DNA from: Enoplolaimus lenunculus
Lineage: Eukaryota
Assembly: GCA_030248215.1 (NCBI GenBank)
Contig: JASANG010000621.1
Coordinates: forward strand, 310,001-374,000
DNA: 64,000 bases
Direction of reading: 5' to 3'
A model generated the notes under the pieces. The model was not told where the DNA came from. It made no database searches and was given only the letters and a program-made list of their open reading frames with translations. Position numbers and translations under genes: made by a program. This document shows positions 4,787 through 61,686 of this stretch, one piece after another; position 1 is the first letter of the stretch, and each line of letters opens with the position of its first letter.

Positions 4787-7700
4787 ATGTTCGTGTTGTG
4801 TTTTGTCGTGGTCTATCAATTGATTTCGATATTAGGTAAGCATACGTATAAATAACAGTCACTCGAGCAGAAAACTACGAAAAAATTTCCTTACTTCTTG
4901 TTTTTTAGTTGCTCTGGCTACGCATCTGAACAGTTTCAAAACTGCAACACTCTAATACTCTCAGCCCCTCGTTTCCGAGTGAGCAGACCCCTATGATTAA
5001 CATGGCCAAATTTTAAACGATCATAATCAACTTAATAAATCTAATTTTACAACAATCAATAGATCGTGAGACAGCGTCAGAAAGTGAATTCAAATTTATC
5101 TGCGATACAAAGTAAATGAGTTATGGTCCAAAAGCCAAATAACACCTCTTCTCCTTTATAAATATTTCAGCTCAGCCACTGTCCGCCGTTCCGCCACCAG
5201 TCAAAATCACTGCCGACGCCCTAAAAGTCCAAATGGCTCAATCACTGGACCGAATCACATGGACTGCCCCTCTTTCGAACACCGTCTATTGTGTCAGCGA
5301 CGGCCCGCCAGAGTCAGTTCTGCTGTCATTTTGGTGCCCAACTTGCATTGACAATGCTGAACTCGCCGAAATTAACAGTCAAATTTCTTCCCGCACTGAA
5401 AATCTCTCTAAAGCAGCCGGGTTTCCCGTAATCAAACTAAATAGCATTCGTCTAAATGGGTCTATGGATAACACGTTGCTAGCGTGTAACGCTACCCTCG
5501 CTTCGGTGGTTTCTACCCACAGCAACATGCCGGATGGGGTCACGGCTACGCCACCCCTGAGGCGAGATCAAATGTCAATTGCGACTGCTGAAATTAGCGT
5601 GCAGTACATGAGCAAACCGGTGATAGTAAATGATAAACACAACGCACCGGTTTGTTCGCGTACTGCTGGTTGTTATTTTTTAATCCGACAACCTGATGCT
5701 AACTTCAGGGCCACTATCACCGAGGGGGCGTCCATCGGCGGGACCAGACGGCCGGCCGCTAATGGCGATGGCAACTTACGAACGACGACAACAAAATTTG
5801 TTTGCTCAGTCGCAGCGAATCCAGAACCAACTGAATTCGTATGGACTGCGAACGGCAAACAAATTGCGTCGTCGCAAGTGCTGACAATCGCGACTGAACA
5901 CATCGAACAAACGTTCGTGTGTTCAGCAGCGAGCGTCGGATTTCGCGAGACGTCCGATCAAGTACGAGTCACCGCGTGGGGTAAGTTGTGGGTGGAATTA
6001 CAATTTCGTGGATGGAGATAAGGTCGTTTTTAAAAAATAAGCTCTTTACAGTTTACGAAATTTTCTTGAAATCGCACAGGACATGTATGTGAAAATTGTA
6101 AAACGGTGCTAAATCAACTGCTTGTGGAAAATCCACTGTCTAATAGTTGGTGAAAGGTGGTAGGTTTTTGTATCAATTCGTAAAACCGAATTGCTCTACT
6201 GAAAGTAGTTTTAAAAAATAACTTTCAAAGGAGATTACGACATTTAATTGCCATTGCAATTGCTACTCTAATACGTCGTATACAAAACACTGCGATAGAG
6301 AAATAAGTACCGATATTGTAAGCCCTCCTGCGTCTGTAATTTCTAGATCCGCGAGTACTAACGGCTATTTTTTTATCATATTGCAAAATCAACCTAGTTT
6401 TTGTTTCGAAGGCGCGCAACAATGTGATTTTGCGACTCTCAACAATTTTACATTAACCACGACCAGTGACGGATTCAGAATTTTCTGGTGCGCAAAAGTG
6501 TTGAACTCGGGTTGTGACCAAAATATGTTTTTCAAATATTTCGCTAGAAAATACACTATGAGCTACACTTGTATCATTTGATCCGCAAACTTTTTATCAT
6601 GGCAGGTCCGATGGGGCGATACATCAACACATTATGCCCGCATCCGCCACTAATCATACCACTTGTTCTCAATTCGTTTTTTTGTTTCAGTTCCCGCAAA
6701 AACTCGACTGCTCATCGAAACCGACTCCGCAAATCCAGAAGCAGCATTGAATCGTTCAAGTCCAGGTCCACCCAAACTTAGCATCCCTACACAGCTAGGA
6801 ACCGAGGCTGTCCTACGGTGCGCAGCGCGTGCCTATCCATTGCCCGCAATGACGTGGTATCAGGCACGCGCTGATGGCACTGTACGGCCTGCAGCATGCG
6901 TTGAGGGACCTACGGGCCGAAATGAATTACCTGAGACGGAAGTTGTTGATCCAAGATATGGATTGGAGCTAAAGGTACGCTTTAGGAAGTGGGGCTAGGA
7001 GCAGCGTATTAGGGCGCGAAAGAAGCTTTTGCTCTTATTTCCTCAAATTCTCGAGCGCGATTCTGCATTTTTGAAACATTGGGGGACACTGCGTATGGTA
7101 CTTGTTTAGTTTAGCCCCATACAAAAACAAGTTTAACTGCATACATAACGAATCTGAACTTAAGCCTAAGCCTGAGCATAAGCCTAAATTTTTTGATAAT
7201 GTAGGTAATAAACATGAACGCTGTGTGGGAGGAATGCGCCTTCTATTAAAGTAATACCTGTTCGTGGAGACTAAACAGTACTCTGAGCAGTTAAGCCATT
7301 CATATCTTAACCAGTATGAATGATATAGAAGGTGTTCAAACTTTATGATAAATAAATAGCACTCTGAAATGACCCGGGCCGTTACAGCCAGTCGCATAAA
7401 TAGTAGAAGGGAGGTCAATCGGAACATGGGCCCCAAACTACGTTGAAAAATTCATTTCTGTTAATGACCAAAATGATTACTGAGACAGCTTTAACCAAAC
7501 AAAACTGAGGAATCTAGCGAGCCAAATTAGTCGTATAGCATTGTTTAAGACATTTTAACAAATGTTATAGCGCACACGAACGGCAGCAAAACGAAATATA
7601 GTTCGGAAACCGGTTATCCCTAGGGTAAGAACATTGATGTTATGGGTTATCATTTGCATTATTGCCCGTTCCTGATATGCTTATCCTACTTTTTCATTTT

Positions 7701-16002: not shown

Positions 16003-18863
16003 CCTACTACAACATCTAATTCAATTAATCATTTAAATCAAAACAGCGAAAATTTATCTGGGGGTAAACAGAACGATCCCTCTTCACTAGCTCATGCCTC
16101 TGGCCCTGTGACTAAATCCGCTTCAAACAATAGTATTGTATAGCACAGAAAAACTCGTGAAGATATGTGCTATATAACAATACTGATCGCACAGTGACGT
16201 TCAACCGCAGAACGTAATCTGGTGTGTACGTCAGTTATTCTGGAGTATGAATGTACACGTAAACACCAAAAAAAATATCAAGTTCTCGGTATTTTTATCC
16301 AATTCGGTGACAGTGAATCTCTGAACGCATTAAAAATGTGTTAATTTTAAGTTATAAATCTGTTTATTTTAAAATGAAATGCGTAGCTAAACTTTATTAG
16401 TGTAATATATTGGCTATGAATGATCGAAAGGTAATTATCATATGATTCGAAATTTCAACTAGCTCTAATTTTAAACTTCACGTTTAAGTTTAAACGTATG
16501 TGACCGTACAATACAGTCAGCTCTTCATGTTACAAAAGTGAAACAAATTTGAAGCCAGGAGCATGCGAAGGTTTCGCATAATTTACAACCGAGTTCAAAA
16601 CTTTTCCCAACCGGGCTTATATTTTTTCTACAATGGAGTCACCTTCTCCCGTTTGGTGACAGACCTGCCTGAAATGCAGGGCCGTAGCCGGCTCACCTAG
16701 CTAAGGGGGGCTAAAGTAGGAGGGGCATACAAGGGTTTTGAATGATGTGCCAGCACAGTTGAAAATTTTTTAGAGGGGGCCAATACTTTTCCAAGGGGGT
16801 TGAGCTCCCTTGGCTACCGGCTCGTTAAAATGCATTCAATATCTTCTGCTAGACGCCAGCTGAAAACAAATATGTTGGGCTGCTATAATAGATAATCTAT
16901 TTACCGTGGATGCTGAAATCAGCATGTTTGCATCCGTAGCAAAACCTTAAGGCCAGCGTTTGATTTCTAAAATTGGTAACGTTTTACTTTTAACGTCTTA
17001 ACTTTTCGTTAACGATTGCTCTATTGCTAATCCTTAGAACAAAACACACTCCTAAAAATGCAACATGCCACAAAATTTGTAACATATCAATCAACTGTAT
17101 TGTGATTTTAAATGTTTTGTATAATTGAACCGTTGTGCAACACATGTGCAATAAAACTGGACATTTTTATAGGCGAATGCGGATCAGACGCTAAATACAT
17201 GCAATTAGCCATACGCCATCGTAGGAACCCCAGCAGTGGTAAATGCTCAAAACTAACCATGATTAATAATCAAACAAATCGCCCATGTATAGAACAGGAC
17301 CGGATCGTTTTCTGGAGGGGCTATTAATAGTCAGGTTAAGCTTTAGACTAATTTTTTTGCTTAGGCTTAGGCTTAGGCTTAGGAATTTGCATCGAATACG
17401 CACCGTCATATACTAAATTTATTACCTTTGCAAGAAACAAAATCTAAAATATAAACATATGCCAAGTCGCATCGTGAGATTACATACTGGGCGTTATTTT
17501 AAATTCTAACCGCTCTTGGTTTAGTAAAACGCGAAATCTAACCGAGTATGATGCTAATCAGTAAAAGGCTAGCTTGCAAATCTGGCACTCTGTGAAGGGC
17601 ACATTTTCGACTTTCCCATGACACAGAACCCATGAGCTCATAACATTTGAAATCAAACCCGCACGCTGAGCGATTTCTTATACACCATAACAGTCCAAAG
17701 GTACTTTATCAGTGATTGTAGCTGTCTGAATAATAAACAGCTTAGTGGTGGGTTGGGGCGACAACCCCACCCTGCTTCGTGTTCTTTCAAAATGCGGAAG
17801 GTTCAAGGAAGCCGCAGCCCCCCCTGAACGAGAAAATTGCGAAATTGATTCAAAGTTTGATTGTTGCAGAAAAAGTTTTTTCGGTCTAGTGATGCGGGCA
17901 ATTGTGTATCCAAAGGTTGGCGGGTGGGCGTACGTCCCCCGTCAGAATATTTTTTGCGATAAAATGGTAACGTCCGTACAATTTTCCCACTCAGAAATTT
18001 CTTGTTATAAAATGACAAGGCCTCGACCTTGCAATTTTCCTCCCTCTGAAAATTATTGTACAAAAATTAGGTCCGTACCTTACAATTTTATCCCCTGAGA
18101 AAAATTTTGTGAATAACTTGCAGTGGTTTAAAAATCAGACGGAGACTACCCAAATCAACTCAATCTCAGGTGGCCAACGCAAGTATTTATTTGTCAGTAA
18201 CAATCTTTTAAACCGATACCCAGCACTATTGAAGCAGTTGCATAATGAATAATTATTTATAGAACTGTATGTTTTATGCTCATAGCGTTCAGCTTGTGGG
18301 ACAGGGTACTTCACTTAGAGGCAACAATTTGAAACCAGTGCTTGAGAAACGAAAATTGAGGTTTGGAAACTCAACACACGCAAAATCGACTTTCGGATAT
18401 ATCCGAAATAGAAAATTTAATTTCGCATATCCCCATATCCGTATAAATATCCGGCAAGAATTGCCAGGTATCCGTATATGAAAAATATTCGATGTCCATC
18501 ACTACTTGGGACAGCTGCTCTTTCCTGTACTCAAAAGGGTTATCAACCACCTTAGAAACATTTTCGCCTCACAACTTTTAGCCCCGCTTCTCTGAGTTTC
18601 AAAGTATGATAGCGCTAAAAACTATTTTACCCCCTAGCATGCGTAGCTGACTACGGGCCTGCAACCACTGTGCACATAAAATATCATTCTTGAATTGTTA
18701 AAACACAAACTATAACGGTAAAATTACTAAATTTAATACGTATCAAACCTACTTATTGAGCGAATAAAATCACACTTCAGATAAAGCATTTACTAATGAC
18801 TGCACGACAATGTAGAGATTACTGGATCTTCCGGGAGGGCAAGAATACCTTATATATGCTCTT

Positions 18864-33574: not shown

Positions 33575-35811
33575 TGCGTCGTCCACAATTATTCGCGTAC
33601 GCGTTGTGGAATTTTGCGTCGACTGTAGACGACTGCCATCTACTATATTTACAACGGACGGCAGTTAGTTGTACTATATTTTTCAATTTTTGAAATTTTT
33701 AAAATTTCAATAGACGATTGCTATTTTTCGCCTACCTACCGTCTACGCCTGCTGTAAATTTGAAAAAAGGCAATCGTTTTTGATGGTACTAACAACATGT
33801 GAGATATCGTCTAAAGCGTAGTTTTAAACTTATAGTAGCCGTCAACAGGTGCGCTAGCTTAAGGTACTGCAGTTGTCGATGAGAGTTTTAAACAAAACAG
33901 CTTAGACACTTGCCCTTAGCAAATTAAATATAGCAGCTGTCAATGAGAATTTATGCAAATACGGCGACCGTCTACGGCTTTTAAGGTTCGCAAACTTGAA
34001 ATTTTCTAAAAATGTATTGTTTTTTCGCAGATCCAGAAAAAGGGGCCTGTGCAATTTCTGAAAAAGGGGGGAATTGCACTAGAAAACACTGGCGAGCAAA
34101 GAGAGCGAGAAACTGAATGCCGGCGGGCGAGTACAAACTTTGTTTGCCTAGACCAGTATGGCAGACGCGTTGTACGGATCCTCTATTGTTGTGTGCTTTT
34201 TCTTTCATATTTTCTTTTGCGCACTATCAAGTCTGCCCATTTGCTTTTTAATAGGGGCGTCCAGGTTTTTGGTGGGTAAGAGTGGGTATAGATTCAAGAT
34301 TTACATTTTTTGCTAGGCTAAAGGCTTAGGCTTATAGGAACACTTTTTTCAACGCTTAGGCTTAGGTTCCGTTTTGTTCATTTTTTAGTATCTTGATTAC
34401 GTGTTTGTCCGGCCTGCCGTATCTCTGCTGAATGTGTATTTGCAACTATACCTACACTGAAGCATATTGTTTTTTGCTTGTATTTTCCTGTTACTTTGGA
34501 ATTCTTGTAGTTGAAAATATGTTTAAAAATAGTTGTATTGCTTTTTTAAAAGTAAACGCCTATCAAACTTCTTAATATATACACCTCACGGAGAGCAAGC
34601 ACGAAAAGGGAACGCGCACGCGGAGTTCAAATGGGAAAGCAGAAAAGAGGGGTATGAAATAGTCCAGGCCAAGGGGATACAGTTTGCCCATGTATAGAAC
34701 AAGGCCGGAACTCCACAAATTGAAAATTTTGGCAATACACGCTCGGACAATTTTTTATAGATTTAAAAACTTTAGAATATACGCCAATTTTTCTTTTTAA
34801 ATGAAAAATTTTCAAAATGGAAAATACCGGAAAATTCCGGTGAAAAAATATCGGATTTTTCTACCGGCTACCGGAACCGGAATTCCGGTTGCACCCTGAC
34901 TCAACTATAGTCAGAAATTTTTTGCCGCTTCCCCCCCGCAAGGTAGGCTGTCCTGCGCCAACACACTGCAACTTTTATTTTTTTACAAATACACATAACA
35001 AACATGCAATAGAGCACAGCACGTATTGGAAGAACATGGGAATGCAAATCCTGTCCAATGTACTTTTAGGGGCGTAACAGCAAATTAAGCGTATTCCTAA
35101 GCCTAAGCCTAAGCCTAAGCGTTGCAAAAATGTGTTTATTAAGCCTAAGCCTAAGCCTAAGCAAAAAATGTAATCTAGAATCTAAACCTGTTCTTTTATA
35201 GACCACCAGGAACTTGGACGCCCCTTATTGTCCCCATAAATTTTTTTAGAACCGAAATGACTACAAACTACGCTGGCTATTTTAGGCCAACAATTCTTTT
35301 TTTAAAATATACCTCCGAAGTTTTGTACGACACAGAAATTCGACCACGCATGGCCTGTTTCATATTCGTATTGCACGTTTAAAAAATTTGAATCTAGAAA
35401 AGTTTGGTACAACATTGCGTAGACAGCTACCGTATCAAAATTTTCGGGCTGTCGTCTACGCTGCTCAGTTTGAACATATAGCAACTGTAGTCGCGTGTTC
35501 AAATTATAGGGGCAGCCGTCTACAGCTTTGAAACGAAAAATAGTAGCCGTCAACGATGGGCTATTTCTAACTTCAGTAGTTGTCAGCATTTACTATATAA
35601 AAGAAACCCATAGACAGTTGCTGTTTAAAAATTTAACCAAATTTTAAAAATGAAAAATTATTTTTGAAAAATTGAAAAGCACTGAAGGTTGCTATAAAAT
35701 TTTCGCAAAGGCAGCTGTTGTAGCTTTACTAATCACGAACCCGTTAAGGGCAGTCGTCTACGGTCGACGCAAAATTCCACAACGCGTACGCGAATAATTG
35801 TGGACGACGCA
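33575..35811. mobile_element. 2.2-kb non-autonomous TIR element with TAA TSD (PIF/Harbinger-like)
   Basis: ~65-bp near-perfect TIRs beginning TGCGTCGTCCACAATTATTCGCGTACGCG; TAA at 33572-74 and 35812-14; contains nested MITEs. Confidence 0.8.
35069..35224 (-). mobile_element. Tourist-like MITE with internal (GCCTAA)n telomere-type arrays
   Basis: TIR GGGGCGT/ACGCCCC, TTA on both sides, two GCCTAA arrays inside. Confidence 0.8.
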
Positions 35812-38968: not shown

Positions 38969-41900
38969 CTACGGCGTATTCGAACCACTCCGGGTCGACA
39001 AATCGTCATGTGTACTGTTGGAATTCAACGCGGAAGATGGGGACATTTTTTGCTGGCCAGCACCAATCATAACTTCAGTTGCGCCCAGAGGTTGTGGTGC
39101 TACCCCACTACTTCCAGCCCCAGAATCGTCCCCAACACTGCTCGTAGTATCAAGCGAGTGTCGACGGCCTTCAGACCCTCCACCATCTTCCTGAGGCGGC
39201 GCTGCGGCCGCCGCTTGTCGCCGTATTTTGTCCTGATGCGCAGAACGAATTTCGAACACTTTTTCAATGCCTTTTTTGAAGCAATGAAAATTGTAGTCGA
39301 TAAGACCTTAAAATATCTATCAAACGATACAGCGTATTTATTTTAAAGAAATGAAACTCGCCAGTAATTCGCTACACCGGAGCGTGTATGTCACAAACAG
39401 TTAAGTGTTCGCTTAGGCTTAGATTCACGCTAAGCAAAAGGCTTTTAATTTTGTTTGGTACATCTTCTAAGTATTATACGTTGTAAGTTAATTATATTCC
39501 ACATATTCTTAAATAATAACTCTTACAACTACCTGTAACCGTAAATCAGTGACGTAACTTGTAATTAATAAATAAAAAAAGTAGAACTAGTACGTAAATA
39601 ACTCTCATAACACTCCTATGCATAGCCCTTAATTCAGTTGTAAGTATCTTACCTCGTTTCTCAAACTTATCAGATCGCAATATGCTGACTAGTGCAAGGC
39701 ATTCATTGATATCTTGTAAATACAATACTGTATTGTTGTTCAGTTTAATCCACGCTGATGTTTTCGTGTCGATATAATTCTGCGTCGTAGTGTTTCGTCT
39801 GAAAAGGCCATTAGCGTCAACTTATCAAATCAGGAGCTGTATTCTCAATTGCGTGTAGCACCTATCGTCAGTTTGTAGCAGGCTTTCGCATGCAGTAAAC
39901 TACGGTGACTATGGTTCTCGAACTTTGGAAGCGAGCGAGACAAATTAAAATATGCAAACAATGTGACAAATTTTAACACTCATCATTAACTGACTCGTGA
40001 ATTATATCATTTAATACCAACTAGCGGTAGGTGCTACACATTTGAAAATATAATCAACACAGGTCGCAAGATTCAAAATTTCAGGGCGTTGAACGGCAAA
40101 ACATTTGTCATAACTAAATTTGATCATTCTAGTACATATTTTGCAAACAAAAATTTCACGAATTTCAACTGAACAATTGCCAAACAATATTGAAATAAAC
40201 CCTACATAAATGATTCATGGCATAACCACAACATTCCTATATACGACAATATTCCGATTCCGATATGATAAATCCTGCTCTGGAATGTTATTTTTGAGAA
40301 TTTTTAACAACATAATCAAGTAACAGTGTATGTTGGCTTATCAGCATCTACCGACCATGGGAATAGAATCGACACGGTGGCGCTTTACTTGTGCATTTTA
40401 TGCCTGAGGTGTGTACATTTTTCCTAAATGACCATGTAAAAATGACTGGAAGTTCTTTTTAATGGGGATCATTTTTTCTCATGACAGTACTTTAACAATC
40501 GGACTTCCATGAAAATGGGCCAGGGGGTCATGTTCTGTTCGGTCATTTTATCATGCGACACCGGAACCTACTGACAAACCGAGCAGTTCCAAACTTTTAT
40601 AGAGGGGAAGCTCCATTCCGTTTCCGCTACATACGTCTACGTACAACACCCCCAACTACCGACTTACCCATATATCGACGAAACATCAGACACAACTTCA
40701 ATCATATCGCAACACAATTCGTACGTTTGTGGATCGACTGGTGAATGATCAGTGGCGACATAAATTTTACTGGCAACATCGAACAAAAAAGCTTTATCAA
40801 CACCTGATGTCTGAAACAAACACAACACACCATTCAAAAACAAAATAAAAATTCAACAATAACTAAGTTTCCCATATATGAAAACTATAGTTTCATCTCA
40901 CAAAACATCAACATTTTGGTAGATCACGCTCTATCACCCTTACAAATAATACCAATACATATTTACTTACCCAAATAAAAATATTAATTAACGCCTCAAG
41001 TGTTGATAATTCAACAATTAATTTTTGAACAACTTTGCTACACGCCTCGAATATTGAATGATCGTATATACTCGTCAAGTAGAAACTGAAAATATGCACA
41101 GAAGTACACACAACATCACATTCACTATTGTTCAAAAAAATCAAGTTTTATATATACCAGAATCAGTATTCATACACCTATGCAATAATTAACTTAAATT
41201 TTATCTGAACAATTTCGCACATTATATATTGTTTCAAAAACGAGATACCACCCTTATCACCATCAATTGAAGTCACACATGATATGAAAGAGACTACGGC
41301 AATTTCTCTCTATTTTTTAAATATTACTCTTCCATTGGTAAAATGAAACCACAACAGTTAAATATCACTGTCAATATATAGATATACAAGTTGTATAATT
41401 TTGCAATTTTATATCAATATCAAATATACAAACCAGCACCAACGAAACATAGCAAAAATGTTAATTCCAGCTATATATACCACGCTGAGACTGTTATAAA
41501 ACACCTTATCCGATGTCTCCAAAACCACACCATTGCACCTTAAGCTGATCTTTCCAGTAAGCCCAATGAACCGTATTTTATCGTTAACTTTCGCTGCGAT
41601 ATCACGTTGGACTTCAATTTTTTGATCGTCAGTGAGTCCATCAACTTTGTGAATAAATATTTCGAATCGTAACTCTGGATTAATGTTGTACGCGACCATT
41701 ATCGTACGGCCTAGCTTGTCTATCGCATTTTCGTAGTCTTCCTGTAAAAGTTACCAAAGCAAAAGCTAAACCTTCTCTTAAACATTGAAACAGCAATTTG
41801 ATATTTAACTGACGTAGATGACATCAAACACGTCGAAGAGAAACCGCACGCCTAGAATTAGAACAAAGCAATCCGGCATACATTCCATTTATGTACATCG

Positions 41901-52439: not shown

Positions 52440-54170
52440 TTTATTAAAAGGATAAACCACATTTACATCAACGAAAGCAATTATATAAACCAAAGAAGGC
52501 AACAACATATTATCATAACATAACAAAGGTCCTTGAAAATTACCCATTATTCTACTCTGCTTGCAAGGATATTATTCAGAGCAAATATGTTAAAAAGCAC
52601 ACAAGAAACCTAGTTTCAAAACAAACTACAAATCAGGTACGCTGAGAAAAAGACATTCGAAAACCCAGCATGCTATCATTCTGTCGGGTTATTGTTCCAA
52701 AAACCTTAAAAAAACATTCTGCTTTTAGATACAGCTTAAGTTTGCACAAATTTCTATAAACATTTTCCTGAAAAACATCAACAACACAGACATTTTCATT
52801 GTTAAACTCGAGTTTACATCGAGCACTCCATATTGCCAATTGTGCATGTTGGACGATGAAATTAAAAGCTATTCTCTTTAATGGGTCGTGAATATTTCGT
52901 CCCAAAATTAAATCCGAAATCGTTATTTCATTTACTCCAGCTACCTGTTGCAAAACGGGAGTAATGAAAAAACTAATTTCTTGCGCCCGCAAACAATAAA
53001 TAAACACATGAACATTATCCTCCCGCACTTCAATTCCATCCAAATAACAAAACGAACATATATTTGTCCCATCTGTAAAATGACTAGTGCGGTGATTAGT
53101 ATACAATGACTTGTGTCTTAACCTAAAATGGACGTCTAGCGCAGAGCCGTCAACATATTTCGCTTTTGCCCATATCCATGATCCCTCGACAAAAATAGGT
53201 TCAACTCCTTGCTCGTCTCGCCAAAAAACATGTTTAGGATGCATGAGTCCCTTATACACAGCGTGTATCCACATTTTATGCAATTTATTTGCCGACACTG
53301 TTTTTAAGGATAACTTTTCGCCAAAAAACCAACAAAAATTTCCATCCATTTTAAAAGATGACTCAATCATTGCAATCCGTATCTCTTTATATACTCCGGT
53401 ACATCAATGCGTCTCAGTTGACGTTTAGTCGAAAACTGAACTTGCCGAAAGAAATGTTCGAAACATCTCTTCCAACTCACAACTTCGGTACCTCTTAATA
53501 TTCGAATATAAAACATTAAACGATTCACTTTCAGTCTGACAAAAATATTTGGGAAATTTATCCCGCCGTGACTAGGTTGTAAAAACAGGATATCCCTTCT
53601 AATAATACTAGCGGTGGACGGGTACCACAACCACTTATAAACCACATTGATAGTTTCCTTCACTAGTTGCTCAGGGGGTGTTACTAATTTTATCAAATAA
53701 TTAAACATACACAAAAAATAAATGTGAACAAGATGGATTTTTCCAAAAACACAGAGATACCTCGGGGCGGTATTCGCTGTTCAAGACTTGCAATTGCTTC
53801 ATAGCACTTTATCCAATTTTCAGGAACATCGAGTCCCTTTGAATCAAACCAAAGGCCATAAATTTTCACTCTTTCAACAATAAAGCGTGCATATTGATGG
53901 GGTACAAGTGCGTTCCTTAGATCGCCCATTAATAGTATCTGTGTTTTAGTTTCCTTTAGTCGGCTGCCAGAGGCCTTTTGAAATTTTTCAAAAACATCAA
54001 AAACCACACTTATATCTGAAATCCTACTTAGAAAAATATTAGTGTCGTCGGCAAACTTAGTCACTCGGGTGTTAATGCCGTATAGTGGTATCCCCGAAAT
54101 TCTTGAAGTTATTCGAAGATAATGAGCTACCACTTCCGCTGTTATGACATATAATGACGGCGATAAGGGA
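52440..54170 (-). mobile_element. 5'-truncated, frameshifted Tx1/L1-clade non-LTR retrotransposon (RT C-half plus zinc finger)
   Basis: PLSPSLY, KFADDT, SGSRL..KT, VKIYG, GGINFPN and C-terminal CSFC..EDNVHVFIYC are spread over ORFs 53693-54184, 53367-53714 and 52633-53370. AATAAA at 52445-52440. Confidence 0.9.
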
Positions 54171-54899
54171 AGTATTTGTTTCATTTGCTGTATTAGTTTC
54201 TAAAAGTCTGTACTGTGCTTCCTCTTTTTCAGCAAGTTTGATTGCATCCTCCAGTGACTTAGGTTCCTTAGATAAAACAAATTTTTTCATTCTACGGTCA
54301 CGAAGGCCTTCAATAAAAAAGTCGCAAGCGAATGCATCTCGTGTATGTTCATCTATATTAGGCCATGCGCCACGTGCGAGTACTTTAATAGCTTGCCCAT
54401 AGTCACCTACGCCTTCTGTAACTAATTGTTTGCGACGAACTAGTTCATTTCTTTTAAATTTTTCTCCCTCTGGTGCTTGCAGTAACTCTACAAGTTTAGC
54501 CGTTAATGCTGAGTAACTGCGCTTAGTGGCATCAGGTAGTCCACGATAACATTCAAGTGCAGTGCCTCTTAAATACGCTGGTAGTACTTTGGTTTTCCGA
54601 GCTTCATTCCAGTTATTGGCGTTGGCTACAAGTTCAAAAAGTTCGAACCACTGTTTAAAATCTTCCCCAATTTTTCCATGATATAGTGCAAGGTCGGTTT
54701 GGTATGTTACAGATGTGCTAGAAGTGGTGTCTAAATCAGTAATTTGTTCTTGTAGTACTGCAACACTTTTATTTGTTTCCGTTTGATTGCGTAAAAGGTG
54801 TGAAATTTCTTGATTTTGTCTTTCCAGGGCTCGCAAAATGCTATCTGTGCGCTCCTTCCCCGTGAAAGATGTAGAGGGTGCAGGGTCCTCCTTAGACAT
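54171..54899 (-). CDS. gag: Ty3/gypsy-type Gag, N-terminal/capsid half (truncated)
   Basis: Capsid motifs YHGKIGEDFKQWFELFE..ANNW, LPAYLRGTALECY, RKQLVTEGVGDY, FIEGL and PKSLEDAIKLA; lies downstream of the LTR and PBS. Confidence 0.9.
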
Positions 54900-55280
54900 T
54901 GAGTCCGGTTTAGACCAGGGCGCTTAGAATTATTCGAAAATATGGGATGTACCAGCGGGTACGGAATGGTAAAGCAAGAATTGGGAGCGAGATGCGCTCC
55001 GGAGATGAACGAGGTACGTTCGAAGGCTTCTGGGGGCGCCCAGAAGAGCTTCTGGAACTAAACGGACTTGGTTATGAAGGACGTGCTAAGGTGTGATGTT
55101 GCCTACTTAAAGTATCCCGTTTTATTTATTGTGAGTTAGTTAGTATGGTTAAATTAAGCCTAATTAATTTAGTACGTGTGCTTAATTTTACAGTGTAAAT
55201 TTGTCGGTTGGGTTGTTTTGCTAATGTGTCTGTTACGGGGAAGCGGTATTCCTATCTACTGATTGCACCGGGTTTGAATT

Positions 55281-55303
55281 TTCGATCCCCAGTACGACCT
55301 CCA
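55281..55303 (-). promoter_or_regulatory. tRNA primer-binding site
   Basis: TGGAGGTCGTACTGGGGATCGAA, 4 nt after the LTR end. Its complement reads as T-loop TTCGATC, T-stem CCCAG, acceptor strand TACGACC, discriminator T and CCA. Confidence 0.85.
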
Positions 55304-55307
55304 AAAA

Positions 55308-55772
55308 TGTAACGCCGCTTATGAATTCTATCTACTTACCACAAGGGATCCAATTCGTGGCATGCGCTATCAATAAACCCACGAAACTGGCCGATAATTG
55401 TAAACGTCCAGAGCGAAAAGATAATACGAAAAACTCGGTTTTCCAAGCGATAAATACGGCGCACACAGCCCGTTGGTAAGAAAATGTAAACTGCCAATTG
55501 CACTGAAGTAAACAGCAAAATTCCAACTAGTTCTGTTCTCTAACCGCGCTCTCCGTTTATATATCAGCTAATTGTTTAGCCTTAACATTCAGAATTTTAC
55601 AACATTTTTTTAACTACCCTTTTCAAATCTTCCAACTTTGCGCATTTCATAAAATCAACATTTCAAATTATTTTCTCTTTTTCTCCATTTACAGCTCGTG
55701 AACAATGCCTATTCATCACTGGTTTTAAATATAAAAATTTAAGCAAAGTATGAATAATCACCAAAAGTTACA
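55308..55772 (-). mobile_element. 5' LTR (465 bp)
   Basis: TGTAAC...GTTACA terminal inverted repeats, TATATAAA at 55563-55556, followed by the PBS and gag. No second LTR found in the window. Confidence 0.85.
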
Positions 55773-56186
55773 CTGCGCCACACTGCAATTAAAGCAGCCT
55801 TGAAGGGTTTAATTGAAACTCAACAGGCTATGATACACCAACTTACAAATAAAACGGACCGACGTGTTTCATTTGTAGAAGACGGTGCAGTAGCCGCTAT
55901 CGAACCAGAAGATAAATATAAAAATTTAAGTCTTGAAATAGAACGATTGCATAGAAGATTAGATGGGTTCTTTCGGGTACAAAATAATCGTAGACCAGAT
56001 TCGAGAAGATTTAGTTCACCGGGTTACCTTGGACGCTCCACCACTTCGGGCAACATACGCTGTGAACACTGTAATGGTGCACACCACAGCTATACTTGTA
56101 CTCGAAAACCATACACTTCTAGTTACCGGTCAGCAACGCCAGACAGACCCAGTAGAAGTCCGGGACGAACATTTAGAGGACAATAA
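55773..56186 (+). CDS. gag: Gag C-terminal half (coiled coil, CCHC zinc knuckle, R/S/P-rich nucleocapsid region)
   Basis: Frame is open from the LTR edge; CEHCNGAHHSYTC = CX2CX3HX4C; basic RS-rich flanks; no start codon of its own. Confidence 0.75.
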   Translation: MRHTAIKAALKGLIETQQAMIHQLTNKTDRRVSFVEDGAVAAIEPEDKYKNLSLEIERLHRRLDGFFRVQNNRRPDSRRFSSPGYLGRSTTSGNIRCEHCNGAHHSYTCTRKPYTSSYRSATPDRPSRSPGRTFRGQ

Positions 56187-58334
56187 CCATACTATACTAG
56201 TCGGAATGAGCAGCGAGGACCTACCCTAAGCACACCTAGACGTGCTAGTCCATCTCCAGCACGCGGAGCTCAGCATAGCAGCAATAACCGAGATCGAAAC
56301 TATGTTAACAGTATTGATACTACAAACTTGGAGAATTTACAGGCAGAGAATGACGCTTTGAGGGATCACTTGCAACGGTTAAGTGAAGCTGGACCGACAT
56401 CCTTTTTAGCAAATGTGATACCACACACTAAACCTCAACAAAAAATTATTAATTCATACCAACCAACCACAAAATTTAGGTTTATACTCATCATTGCTTT
56501 TGTACTTATATACTACTGTTTTTATTGCGGTCACTGCGGTACATATAACTTTTGTCAAGGTAACAAAGGGGGTCACGCTATAGCAATCCCACAAACACTC
56601 ACCTGTGTTAATCCTCATGTGGCAAAAGTACAGGATATAGATATTAGACTTTTTACACCTCGAACCGAACCCGTAATAAGGACCACATGGAAATGTTCTA
56701 TTATACAAAGAACTATTTGCACTAACACTGGGTTCTTCGGTTCAAAAGGAATCGTTTCAGATAACACTTATGAAAAACCAGCTGATATTATCACTTGCAA
56801 AATAGCACGCACTAACAAGGTCTATAGAAATACAACGCTCATTCAGACAACTCCAACTACCTGGTCTACCTTGCAAACTTTAAATGTGAAATACAAATGG
56901 TGCTGCTATAGTTTCTGCCAGTCAATTGAGAATTTTCTCCTAGAGGTTGGCCAAGCCGCGACATTTAATGGTGTGGTTCTAGTTAGTAGTCTAGGGGATC
57001 TTAGCGCCTGCACAACCTCCAATGACTATTGTCAAACACGTACAGCAACCTACGTCTGGATCAAACATTTTCCACCAGGACCTTTATGTCACTTACAAGA
57101 GCATGGTACATACACCGGAAAAATTAGTAACCAGCACATCATTGTCGATGAGGTTCAAGGAGCATTTACACTTACTAATATTACCACTATAAATTGCCGA
57201 TGCACAAAGGGTATTCTACATGAGACATTTGAAGGGGTTAGTATCGAATTTCTTTCCGTTAATAGTTTACAACTGAAATCTCTGCAAACCCAATACTCGA
57301 TGCAAACAGATGACAATATTGCATCAAACACCAGTGAACATACTAACGCCATCGATCCTGTCAATACTAAATTAAATTATTTACAATACCAAATTAATAG
57401 AATGCAAATTGAAAGTTTTGCACGGGTATGGCAAGAGTTATGTGCTAATAGGAAACGACAACTACATATGATAAAACAATTAATAACACTAGATGCCACA
57501 TTGGGAGCCAGAGTTTTACTTCAGCGGGACAGCATACATGCAGTTATAGCTGGTGAAGCACTTCTCGTATGGGACTGTATACCAATCGAAGTTACATATT
57601 TTTATTGGGACCACAATTTAAATGGAACCTGTTATGAGTATATACCTGTTGAAACAAAACTCAAAACACTTTTTGTTTTGCCAGGTACTAAAGATCTAGT
57701 GGCTGAATCAAAAATTATACCTTGCAATACACCACTGCATACTTATTACCAACTTCAAAATCGTTGGCATTCTATAGGACAGGAAATTCATGTATCCGAC
57801 GTACCACTGAATCTAATCTGGACCTCAAAATTTAAATTCTTTTCTTTTAATGCCAGCTCAATTGCTCTGAGACATACTTCAAACTACCTACCTTATATGT
57901 ACCAACTCTTAAATGAAAGACAACGGTACCGCGACACACAAACGCAATTAGACAGACTTGTTAATTACACAGCAGGAATGTCTTACGATCCATCAGTCGT
58001 CTATAATGTGATTAAAGGAACCGGAGACGGTATAGCTACGGTGGTTAAAAGTTATGGTAATACAGTTGGCAAAATATTTCATAGTGTTACTACCGACACT
58101 ATAAGTTTAGTCAATGGCTTGCTGCGGGGACCCATACAAATTATTATCAATCTCATAGTTATTATAGGCCTTATGTTAGCAGTTATTGGGTTCCTATATG
58201 TAGGCTATAAAAGAAGACTGTTTCAAAAATGCAAACCGCGGAAAACCATATTTAAAAACCGAACTATAACAAGGTTTTGGCCCGTGTCTAAAAGAATTCA
58301 CCACCAGAAGTGCCGGAATTACCAGATGTACTAA
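56187..58334 (+). CDS. env: Env: class III viral fusion glycoprotein (herpesvirus gB/chuvirus G-like), in frame with gag
   Basis: Internal signal-like FRFILIIAFVLIYYCFY and a Cys-rich ectodomain. VWQELC..LDATLGARVLLQRDSIHAVIAGEALLVWDC resembles the gB central helix region. Also CYEYIPV, a Gly-rich amphipathic membrane-proximal segment, TM IIINLIVIIGLMLAVIGFLYVGY with basic stop-transfer KRR, and several N-X-S/T sequons. Confidence 0.85.
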   Translation, partial: PYYTSRNEQRGPTLSTPRRASPSPARGAQHSSNNRDRNYVNSIDTTNLENLQAENDALRDHLQRLSEAGPTSFLANVIPHTKPQQKIINSYQPTTKFRFILIIAFVLIYYCFYCGHCGTYNFCQGNKGGHAIAIPQTLTCVNPHVAKVQDIDIRLFTPRTEPVIRTTWKCSIIQRTICTNTGFFGSKGIVSDNTYEKPADIITCKIARTNKVYRNTTLIQTTPTTWSTLQTLNVKYKWCCYSFCQSIENFLLEVGQAATFNGVVLVSSLGDLSACTTSNDYCQTRTATYVWIKHFPPGPLCHLQEHGTYTGKISNQHIIVDEVQGAFTLTNITTINCRCTKGILHETFEGVSIEFLSVNSLQLKSLQTQYSMQTDDNIASNTSEHTNAIDPVNTKLNYLQYQINRMQIESFARVWQELCANRKRQLHMIKQLITLDATLGARVLLQRDSIHAVIAGEALLVWDCIPIEVTYFYWDHNLNGTCYEYIPVETKLKTLFVLPGTKDLVAESKIIPCNTPLHTYYQLQNRWHSIGQEIHVSDVPLNLIWTSKFKFFSFNASSIALRHTSNYLPYMYQLLNERQRYRDTQTQLDRLVNYTAGMSYDPSVVYNVIKGTGDGIATVVKSYGNTVGKIFHSVTTDTISLVNGLLRGPIQIIINLIVIIGLMLAVIGFLYVGYKRRLFQKCKPRKTIFKNRTITRFWPVSKRIHHQKCRNYQMY

Positions 58335-58915
58335 AACCGAATGAACAAATTTTGAATACAGAAACAACAAGAAAACCTTCTTGGGCTATTATTGAGATTT
58401 CCGAAAAAGATACACCAATTTGGCCACCAAAATCAATTTGTGGTACAAAAACGGGTAATTTTCTTATTCCAGCTGAAGTGGCTGAGAGAAAAATGACTAT
58501 TATTTTCCGTTCTCCGAATATTTCTGACGCCACTCTCATAGCAAAAATGCTGCTGTTTTCCAATTCAAACACAATAGCCATTCATCGCAAAACTTTTAAG
58601 CATCCAACTTTAAGTTAACAAGTGAATCACTAACATTAGCTGAGCGCTTGTTACACGATAATGCAAGGTTAAAAACTTAAAGTAGGCTTTAAAGTTTCGA
58701 ACTCAACTTTATTTGGTCGTGGAGTATTTATGCGCTACAATTTGAAATAATTGACATTTATTTACTCTAATTAAGGTTTAGGGACTCTATTCGCTTACGG
58801 ACTCTTATTAGGGATACGGACTCCTATTGATTTGGACTCAAAATGGGAAGTCCCGCTAATTAACTACAGTAAGTATTCAGGCGGCGCAGATGCTTAACTT
58901 GTTTAAGAAACGTAC

Positions 58916-59023: not shown

Positions 59024-61314
59024 ACTTTTTTGTAGTTTTAAAGCAAATTTCAAATTTGACGCTAAATAAAAATGCAAAACACGGATCATTTTAAACTTAT
59101 AGGGAACATCCTTTTGAACGAGGAAACTGAACTATGAAATGTGAAACAATTTCTCGACTATTCGTTTTGCGTCTGTGATAGTTTACAATTTCAAATTGCG
59201 ATACAGTTGCATTGGCGGCATAAATTAAATATTTGAAGCTGTGATTGCTTGGGTTTAAAATATTTCTTAAAAATGTTAATTTTCAAAATTTCAACATTTC
59301 ATGCCGAAATTTCTTAAATTTATAAAATATATTCATTTCGATGTTTTATATATACATATATATGTATATAAGTATATATCAAGTGCAAATAAATTCAAAC
59401 TTTGTCACAACTAAATCATTACGCCATTTCAGGGTCAAAAACCCTCTGCGTGTCTCTACTGCTTACGATGCTGCTTCACTATCGATATTCCAACCGCAGT
59501 CGCCGAAATTTCTCATTCATAGGACGAATTAAAAAACTTAGAAGAAATTAAAAAAATAGGCTTAGATTGAAGGCGAAAACTGAAAATTAAAGTTCTGAAC
59601 ATAAACGAGTTGATTTTCAATCAATATGGTTGAAATGTTTTAGAAAACATAATGCGACATATGGGTTTACGTTTCTCTTTTTTCATTTTAATATTAAAGG
59701 TCAAAGAACGCGTAAACAAGAACTCGGTTTGAAATAAGATAATAAACCGAACAAATTTTATATACGAATGCAGTTACAGAAAACGGTTGCTAAGTAACGA
59801 CAACAATAATCTTGGTGTAGAATAAATATAAAAACGCAGGGTACGCAAGTGTACTCAACATAGGTTGGCTATAAAATATTTTGAAGACATTGAGCAAACT
59901 ATAGGCCGCAAGAGACTAGAAGCATCGATTTGTCACTTAGAACATATGCTATTGCAAGTACTGTAGGGACCCGAATAAGCGAGAAGGGGGTAATAAGATG
60001 GGGTCGCCATTTTGGGTAGTCCGTAACAGATAGAATCCCTAAACCCTATTTAGAGTCGATAAATGTCAATCATTCCTAACTGTAGCGCATGACTGACTCC
60101 AGGACCAAACAATTTGAGTTTGAAACTTGAAAGCGTACTTAAGTTTTGAAAATAGATTCCTTAGTATAACCTTGCATTAGCGCTCAAGCTGTTGACACAA
60201 GACAAATAAAAGTTTAATTCAACGGATAGTTGCAGTACCGGTTATTATGTCGCTAACAAAGAATGACGGAGCGTGGGATAAAAATAAACAACAGTCTGTA
60301 ACCGAATAACAGGGAGGTACCCTTTGGAGAGGCCAAATAAATCTCCTATCAATGTTTTTAACCACCAGGTTGCTAAATGTTAACAAACTTTCACGCTCGC
60401 CACATTCGCTGGCCTACTGCTTTACTTAATATCACATAACTCAATCGAACTGAAATATGCAAGAATGGTAATAAAACAGTTTTGGGGTGAGGTGTTCCGT
60501 GTGCTGTCTAAGCTTTTTCCTGAGCTGTTCCGCTGCTAAAGTAGAACACGTCAATGAATTTCGCTTCAAAGATGAGTTCACTCTCTAGATCCACCGTTGT
60601 GCAACTTTGGTGTGAAACTTTTTCGGAAAGGTATCCTCACAGCTATGAAACACGAGGGTGACCTCGCAAAATTTCAGATCAATCGTCGAGAAGTTCTGGA
60701 TCCACCTCTACGTTATGGAGGCCCATCCTGGAGTTTGGAGGGAGATCCCATCCCTGTCTGCTCCGGCTCTGCATATATTGCAATTCCGCAATATTTTCAG
60801 GACACTGGACCTTTAGTAGTTGAAGTATTTAAAACCTATGAACGACTTTATTAGCCGAGACGTTGAAAGCATTTGAGGTAAGGTCTAAACCCACGGTTCC
60901 TACCTAAACTGGCTGGCTTGGAGGCTACGCCATGAGCGCAATGGTAAATTACCGCGCTATGAAAACGGTGTACAGTCGAAAATAGGATAGACAGTCAAGG
61001 GACGACCTTGTTGAATATTGAACCAATGCAAAAAGTACTGATGGTTTCTGGCACGCTTCGCTCGCGATGTTTTTTGCGACATATTGCGGTGTAGACCCGT
61101 GCAAAAATATACTGGATCAGCAACCGGCAATGAATAATTCAGTGCAAACTGCAAATTGTGTACGCGAATTCTACTCGAATTTTTTATGTCATTTGAGAGC
61201 TTTGTTTGCCTGGTATGGCTAGTCTTGTGTAGCTCAGCGGCGGCTGTGGCTACACCATATATAGGTGGAAATTAGACTGTTTTAAACAAGTCGCTGCCCC
61301 CAATATTGTTCCTA

Positions 61315-61686
61315 CGCTGCAAAAAATGGTGAGTCTATTTGACTCTCTCCGATATAGGCTCTACACATGCGACGCTGTGAGTTGAACTTGACTCAATTTG
61401 TGTAGTCCCGTAAGCCCAATGCGGAAAAAAGAGTCAATTTGACACACCATTTTTGGCCCATGTATAGAATATGGCCGGAACGTTTTCCGGCGGGACTGTA
61501 ATAGTATAAGTTTAAACGTTAGACTAATTGATTGCTTAAATTTAGGCTTAGGCTTAGGTTTAGGCTTAGGAATCTGCTCATTCTTACGTTTAGGCTTTAG
61601 GCTTTAGGTTTAGGCGTTAGGCTTAGGAGTATGCTTATACTACTGTCCAGGCCTTGTTCTATACATTGGCCCCATTTTTGGCAGTG
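61315..61686. mobile_element. Tc1/mariner-type MITE with a nested TTAGGC-containing insert
   Basis: TA-CGCTGCAAAAAATGGTGAGTC ... CCATTTTTGGCAGTG-TA; homologous to 14463-14669; TTAGGC arrays at ~61541-61628. Confidence 0.65.

Follow-up and report, generated by a model that had tools for sequence, protein, structure and literature searches.

A Ty3/gypsy element with its 5' half inverted at the LTR terminus: a possible chromosomal scar of one-ended autointegration

Introduction

Work on autointegration has treated it as a dead end within particles and infected cells. The DNA analysed here, a 64-kb stretch referred to as the window, raises the question of whether such an event may have left its trace in a chromosome. 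The window comes from an animal genome and contains spliced host genes along with numerous repeats, and one retroelement copy within it is divided into two opposed halves. On the minus strand, in rightward order, lie the 3' part of a LINE, the N-terminal half of gag (gag-N), the leader, the primer binding site (PBS) and an LTR; the C-terminal half of gag (gag-C) and env follow on the plus strand (Table 1). In the available portions of published reports, autointegration into the opposite strand inverts the 5' part of the element, and the autointegrants are characterised as extrachromosomal dead ends (PMC7197481, PMC4751563, PMC2644782, PMC12951756). What has to be explained is how, on a chromosome, an LTR end came to lie against the element's own gag.

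Table 1. The rearranged element and the LINE to its left (positions within the 64-kb window)
Feature	Position	Strand	Basis
LINE 3' part, 5'-truncated, frameshifted	52440..54170	-	RVT_1 E 2.9e-07; family contigs
gag-N: N-terminal coiled coil and capsid region, 243 codons	54171..54899	-	48% identity to P0001 22-251
5' leader, PBS to gag start	54900..55280	-	position; family contig coverage
PBS, tRNA-Gln type, 4 nt from LTR	55281..55303	-	20/20 identity to tRNA-Gln(UUG) 3' end, then CCA
Single LTR, probably 475 nt, TG...CA	55308..55782	-	contig continuity; terminal match; alternative outer end 55772
Strand-switch junction, LTR terminal CA adjoins gag-C	55782..55785	.	contig matches
gag-C: coiled coil, LHRRLDGFF motif, Cys/His knuckle-like motif	55783..56186	+	40% identity to P0001 262-378
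gag tail in frame with gB-type (class III) env	56187..58334	+	PF24664 E 7.8e-21
Post-env frame at expected pol start	58292..58618	+	protease match not significant

Identity and extent of the element

Judged by sequence similarity, the element is a dead copy of a known kind, a gag-env-pol Ty3/gypsy element with a gB-type envelope. Protein searches returned one relative each: a natural 1186-aa Gag-Env fusion (P0001), a Gag fragment (P0002) and a 2293-aa Gag-Env-Pol protein (P0003) that carries protease, RT, RNase H and integrase after env. These relatives are 32-48% identical and too distant for base-level mapping. In tblastn, P0001 residues 4-251 match the minus strand (54905-54168, E 7e-61) and residues 262-1100 the plus strand (55797-58199, E 7e-132). 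The gag-N frame opens at an ATG at 54899, is cut just after the capsid and continues for 32 codons into LINE DNA, to a stop at 54072-54074; it also matches P0003 residues 68-228 (E 2e-21). The gag-C match to P0001 has an E value of 4e-18, gag-C is in frame with env, and the arrangement is collinear with P0001 and with P0003 residues 68-228 and 347-1054. The env region is 35% identical to P0001 464-1100, and its gB-type profile match lies above the cut-off. Both a premature stop in gag-C (56184-56186) and a frame break in env near 58293 are absent from the family contigs.

The 20 PBS letters that are identical to the tRNA gene occupy 55281-55300, the reference tRNA-Gln(UUG) gene having been called by ARAGORN in an unrelated record. 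The LTR carries a TATATAA at its position 220. Pattern scans with the PBS gave no viral match and one metagenome match, a tRNA cluster whose sole use was to name the tRNA. Metagenome contigs scanned at the protein level gave 80 pattern matches and no relative, and Rfam returned two matches on 54900-55900, both at chance level. Separately, an unrelated virus-like metagenome contig (L001) carries nine tRNA genes at 732-1849 between two similar ORFs, which we take to be of an endonuclease-like family. The gag-env-pol order with a gB-type env is described in Nematoda, Bryozoa and Platyhelminthes in the part of the report available (PMC13524379), and a 12-mer of the PBS is absent from seven supplementary files of that report.

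The element is truncated on its right. Repeat and self-comparison searches found no second LTR copy in the 64-kb window, and tblastn with the relatives' proteins gave no match to pol anywhere in it; the order protease-RT-RNase H-integrase is seen only in the 32%-identical P0003. A protease start was suspected by eye at 58292-58618, and profile and protein searches of it were not significant. Beyond env lie about 300 bp of uncertain sequence followed by a high-copy repeat, and a jump in contig depth places the right end of the element between ~58500 and this repeat, near 58680. Just to the right of the truncated end, 58673-58790 and 60030-60147 form the inverted arms of an extremely high-copy repeat. 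Host exons were recognised for an Ig-domain protein (5143-6995, plus strand) and a Rag/Gtr1 GTPase (41412-41750, minus strand), and no host gene was identified in the window adjoining the element. Many short runs of TTAGGC, the nematode telomere unit, occur inside dispersed repeats, for example at 17354-17390, 35085-35167 and 61529-61637; taken together with the gag-env-pol order, they point to a nematode as the probable host.

One family, several young copies

The locus was compared with public contigs from three runs (X1, X2 and X3), which derive from two samples of one study and may be the very source of the window; rare variants and short links are lost from contigs of this type, and their depth is not copy number. 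The inverted and plus-strand halves are both ~99.2-99.7% identical to the closest family contigs listed, with differences of 1/330 and 1/279 in the LTR, 1/322 in gag-C and 1/321 and 3/388 in env. This similarly low divergence of the two halves fits a single and apparently young copy. The family stands at ~5-8x the depth of the flank, with several near-identical copies, and LTR depth is about equal to that of the inner sequence rather than double (266 vs 274 in X2, 37 vs 36 in X3). X2 contains the right flank as single-copy DNA (0/681 differences), and the contigs lack the variants private to the window. Loose ends in X3 at 52547 and 54680 carry letters that resemble what is presumably a PCR amplification adapter, so low-input amplification is possible.

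In related copies the halves are joined across strands by a joint at 54190|55791 found in both X2 and X3, 1 of the 12 joints listed for 54125-55900 changing strand; the contig carrying it belongs to a subfamily ~84% alike (31 differences in 189). Since one natural protein matches both halves in order and related contigs join them across strands, the halves belong to the same family. The first-pass annotation had assigned gag-N, PBS and LTR to the minus strand and gag-C and env to the plus strand, which the open frames and the P0001 alignment bear out; its reading also required both gag halves to come from one family, and it had gag-N stopping just after the capsid about where gag-C resumes, and P0001 agrees (residue 251 vs 262).

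The right break

The outer LTR end had been placed in the hexamer GTTACA (55767-55772), directly abutting a gag-like frame that begins LRHTAIKAAL. Both points are probably wrong. A multi-copy X1 contig of 279 nt with one difference (depth 79 vs 16 in the single-copy flank) spans 55503-55781 unbranched and so passes 55772, and of 22 ends tried, 55782 gives the best match to the inner end of the LTR, 9/14 vs 7/14 for 55772 and 55787. The outer end is probably (~75%) the CA at 55781-55782, although simplified contigs could hide a branch at 55772. On this placement 55773-55782 belongs to the LTR side and LRHT is not gag. One X3 contig of a related copy first matches gag-C at 55785. The terminus would fall at 55772 if 55773-55784 were a polypurine tract, but this is disfavoured, as the stretch has 8/12 purines and is broken by pyrimidines; the folding of the LTR (z 0.11) carries no information on the terminus. 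What stands of the earlier reading is that the break lies at the LTR terminus, its coordinate being probably 10 bp off: with either end, 55772 or 55782, the break is within 12 nt of the terminus. The terminal CA is kept to the base, with no host remnant beyond it, and 55783-55784 may be either gag, as in a clean integrase joint, or two extra bases from an unprocessed cDNA end.

Two repeats lie near the junction. A 7-nt word occurs twice, at 55770-55776 in the LTR end and at 55780-55786 across the junction, by chance or as microhomology. An exact AT-rich direct repeat of 18 nt links 55726-55743 in the LTR with 55913-55930 in gag-C (self-BLAST E 0.03). Family contigs carry the gag-C copy, so that the repeat predates the rearrangement; in the contig comparison it gave rise to a false joint, and it has no part in the mechanism.

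The left break and the gap in gag

The left break lies exactly at 54170|54171. Family matches reach 54171 in all three runs, in each of which a variant at 54212 lies 42 letters from the match end, and at 54170 the sequence of the LINE family parts from the window. The LINE is cut in the middle of its RT, within RQGCPLSP, so that the LINE in the window starts at PLSP, and its upstream motif was not found elsewhere in the 64 kb. It belongs to a very high-copy family (summed X1 depth in the tens of thousands), its 3' end is placed roughly, at an AATAAA signal, and it is young, with differences of 0/331, 3/457 and 0/358 letters from family contigs. A LINE target-site duplication was sought in the flanks and not found, and the LINE therefore either pre-existed or came with a deletion; being about as young as the element, it may itself have made the left break.

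In the first-pass annotation, 54171 and 55773 were envisaged as adjacent in an intact gag or as overlapping by 4-6 bp. No such overlap or target duplication was seen, the gag-N end and the candidate gag-C starts sharing at most 3 nt, and the alignments suggest that ~20-30 nt have probably been lost between the gag ends. With the first four gag-C residues counted back in, about seven P0001 residues remain unfilled in the MAFFT alignment. In the 84% subfamily two 30-letter loose ends overlap by five, which gives ~55 nt between 54190 and 55791 vs 25-27 in the window; 18 of 107 loose ends were considered in this comparison of 54125-55900. A contig 89% alike matches up to 54171 and extends for 60 nt more, and is not joined to gag-C. 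Direct adjacency of the gag ends in the window's own subfamily is also possible and compatible with the data, as no listed near-identical contig spans the linker. No contig bridging either junction occurs among the 24 pieces listed of 437 or the 24 listed of 36,204, which is not evidence of absence given the rare variants and short links that contigs drop.

Origin of the rearrangement

It is proposed, with a probability of about one half, that the U3 end of a cDNA joined the element's own gag and that host repair trimmed the resulting molecule and fixed it in the chromosome. The locus itself displays the geometry, a single family, a break at most 2 nt from the TG...CA terminus and a second break near the same gag position. 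From these we infer that the U3 end of a new linear cDNA, through the action of integrase, would have attacked its own gag on the opposite strand, creating the LTR|gag-C joint and inverting the 5' 1.6 kb; that ~20-30 bp would have been removed from the freed gag end during host repair, which would have joined that end to the chromosome; and that pol and the 3' LTR would have been lost later. The same geometry would result from end-joining or from a template jump by RT at the end of the cDNA. By our own arithmetic for an element of ~8 kb, chance alone would place a break no more than 12 nt from a terminus in ~0.15% of cases, and another no more than 30 nt from the first gag break in ~0.7%. A one-ended attack is likely to account at once for the break at the terminus and for a left break within ~30 nt of the attacked site.

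In a complete inversion circle, integrase chemistry gives a short duplication from staggered cuts. Attack by the U3 end alone fits the locus better than such a circle, because a LINE rather than a second LTR lies at 54171, there is no duplication, and pol and the 3' LTR are absent. In the available part of the report, one-ended integration followed by host repair is described for HIV and ASLV, including viral-viral joins in either orientation (PMC5041404). The autointegration put forward in the first-pass annotation is thus retained for the inverted 5' half and for breaks at the terminus and at the same gag site; against it stand the missing duplication, the lack of a second LTR end at 54171 and the lack of bridging among the contigs listed. 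Moreover, the terminus at 55782 is deduced rather than read directly, and the status of 55783-55784 leaves an integrase-clean joint unproven.

An integrase-clean LTR|gag joint would also arise by ordinary chemistry if a second young copy had integrated in the opposite orientation into the gag of a first, with the left arm and the 5' half of the first copy then deleted. Such a nested insertion would leave the gag-C, env and pol arms as a long inverted repeat around a 1.6-kb loop, the deletion falling at the stem-loop boundary, and by our own reasoning the processing of such a repeat would set the left break close to the gag site of insertion. Nesting and autointegration share this inverted-repeat intermediate and are therefore hard to separate. 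Several near-identical copies are at hand, at ~5-8x the flank depth (a depth that is not a copy number), and the available part of one report documents same-family nesting in plants (PMC6911290). We nevertheless regard this origin, with its deletion at the stem-loop boundary, as unlikely: it needs a very small target and a traceless deletion of ~9 kb, the outer 5' half, second LTR, second gag, pol and target duplication are all absent from the 64 kb, and the similar divergence of the halves calls for no second copy.

Somewhat less probable again is a chromosomal inversion after normal integration into the LINE, with one break where the LTR meets host DNA, possibly while the integration gap was being repaired, and the other in gag, followed by end-joining with a small deletion. 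Small junction deletions are typical of end-joining, one copy suffices, and the junction is the very point at which the LINE's RT is interrupted. This history, however, requires that the break coincide with the terminus and take no LINE base along, the bases that follow the CA not being those of the LINE; the LINE's upstream motif is absent from the rest of the window, and 5' truncation accounts for the LINE equally well. The chance that the structure is an artefact, an amplification chimera or a misassembly in a multi-copy repeat, is judged slim. No listed contig bridges the junctions, the private variants are missing from the contigs and X3 has adapter-like ends; yet two independent chimeric joints would have to hit the LTR terminus and a point within ~30 nt of the same gag site, the contigs lose rare variants and short links by their nature, and the right flank is single-copy DNA in X2 (0/681). 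Other explanations are very improbable. Overall, the rearrangement is probably real and its chemistry ordinary, both the element type and the chemistry of autointegration being already known.

Significance

Taken alone, the locus changes little, being a single defective copy of no demonstrated function whose order of events cannot be recovered. It is likely a preserved autointegration scar in a genome, a known accident that is seldom reported. If the proposed origin is true, a chromosomal and probably inherited autointegrant would show rescue by host repair, and genomes could be scanned for its signature, an LTR terminus that abuts sequence from inside its own element, the second break falling close to that internal site. 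A TATA-containing LTR, a PBS and an open capsid-only gag are retained in the inverted half, so that a truncated Gag is possible. A more tentative and rather doubtful extension is that a one-ended autointegrant was repaired by the host and inherited, that 'suicide' cDNAs can accordingly enter the germline, and that the truncated Gag could interfere with its own family. No inherited autointegrant was found in the literature by title and start of abstract, a weak negative given the incomplete coverage.

Comparison with known systems

The comparisons below extend as far as the available parts of the reports cited. With the GAG-ENV-POL errantiviruses (PMC13524379) the window copy shares a gag followed directly by a gB-type env, an LTR and a tRNA PBS; it differs in being rearranged and in lacking pol and the 3' LTR, and the absence of RT precludes its placement in a tree. 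The same-family 'autoinsertions' (PMC6911290) are alike in having an LTR end inside a gene of their own family, whereas the window retains neither an outer element nor a second LTR or a target duplication. The inversion circles of Ty1, Arabidopsis SISYPHUS and HIV-1 (PMC7197481, PMC4751563, PMC2644782) have an LTR end on an internal site of the opposite strand, as do the rearranged 1-LTR circles of Drosophila nomad (PMC12951756). The inversion circles, however, are extrachromosomal and have two LTRs, while the window copy is chromosomal and has one LTR, no duplication and a LINE at its other end. Aberrant HIV-1 and ASLV proviruses resemble it in combining one integrase-type end with one truncated, host-repaired end (PMC5041404); they arose in cell culture with drugs or mutants and their clean end joins host DNA, whereas that of the window copy, in an invertebrate genome assembly, joins the element itself.
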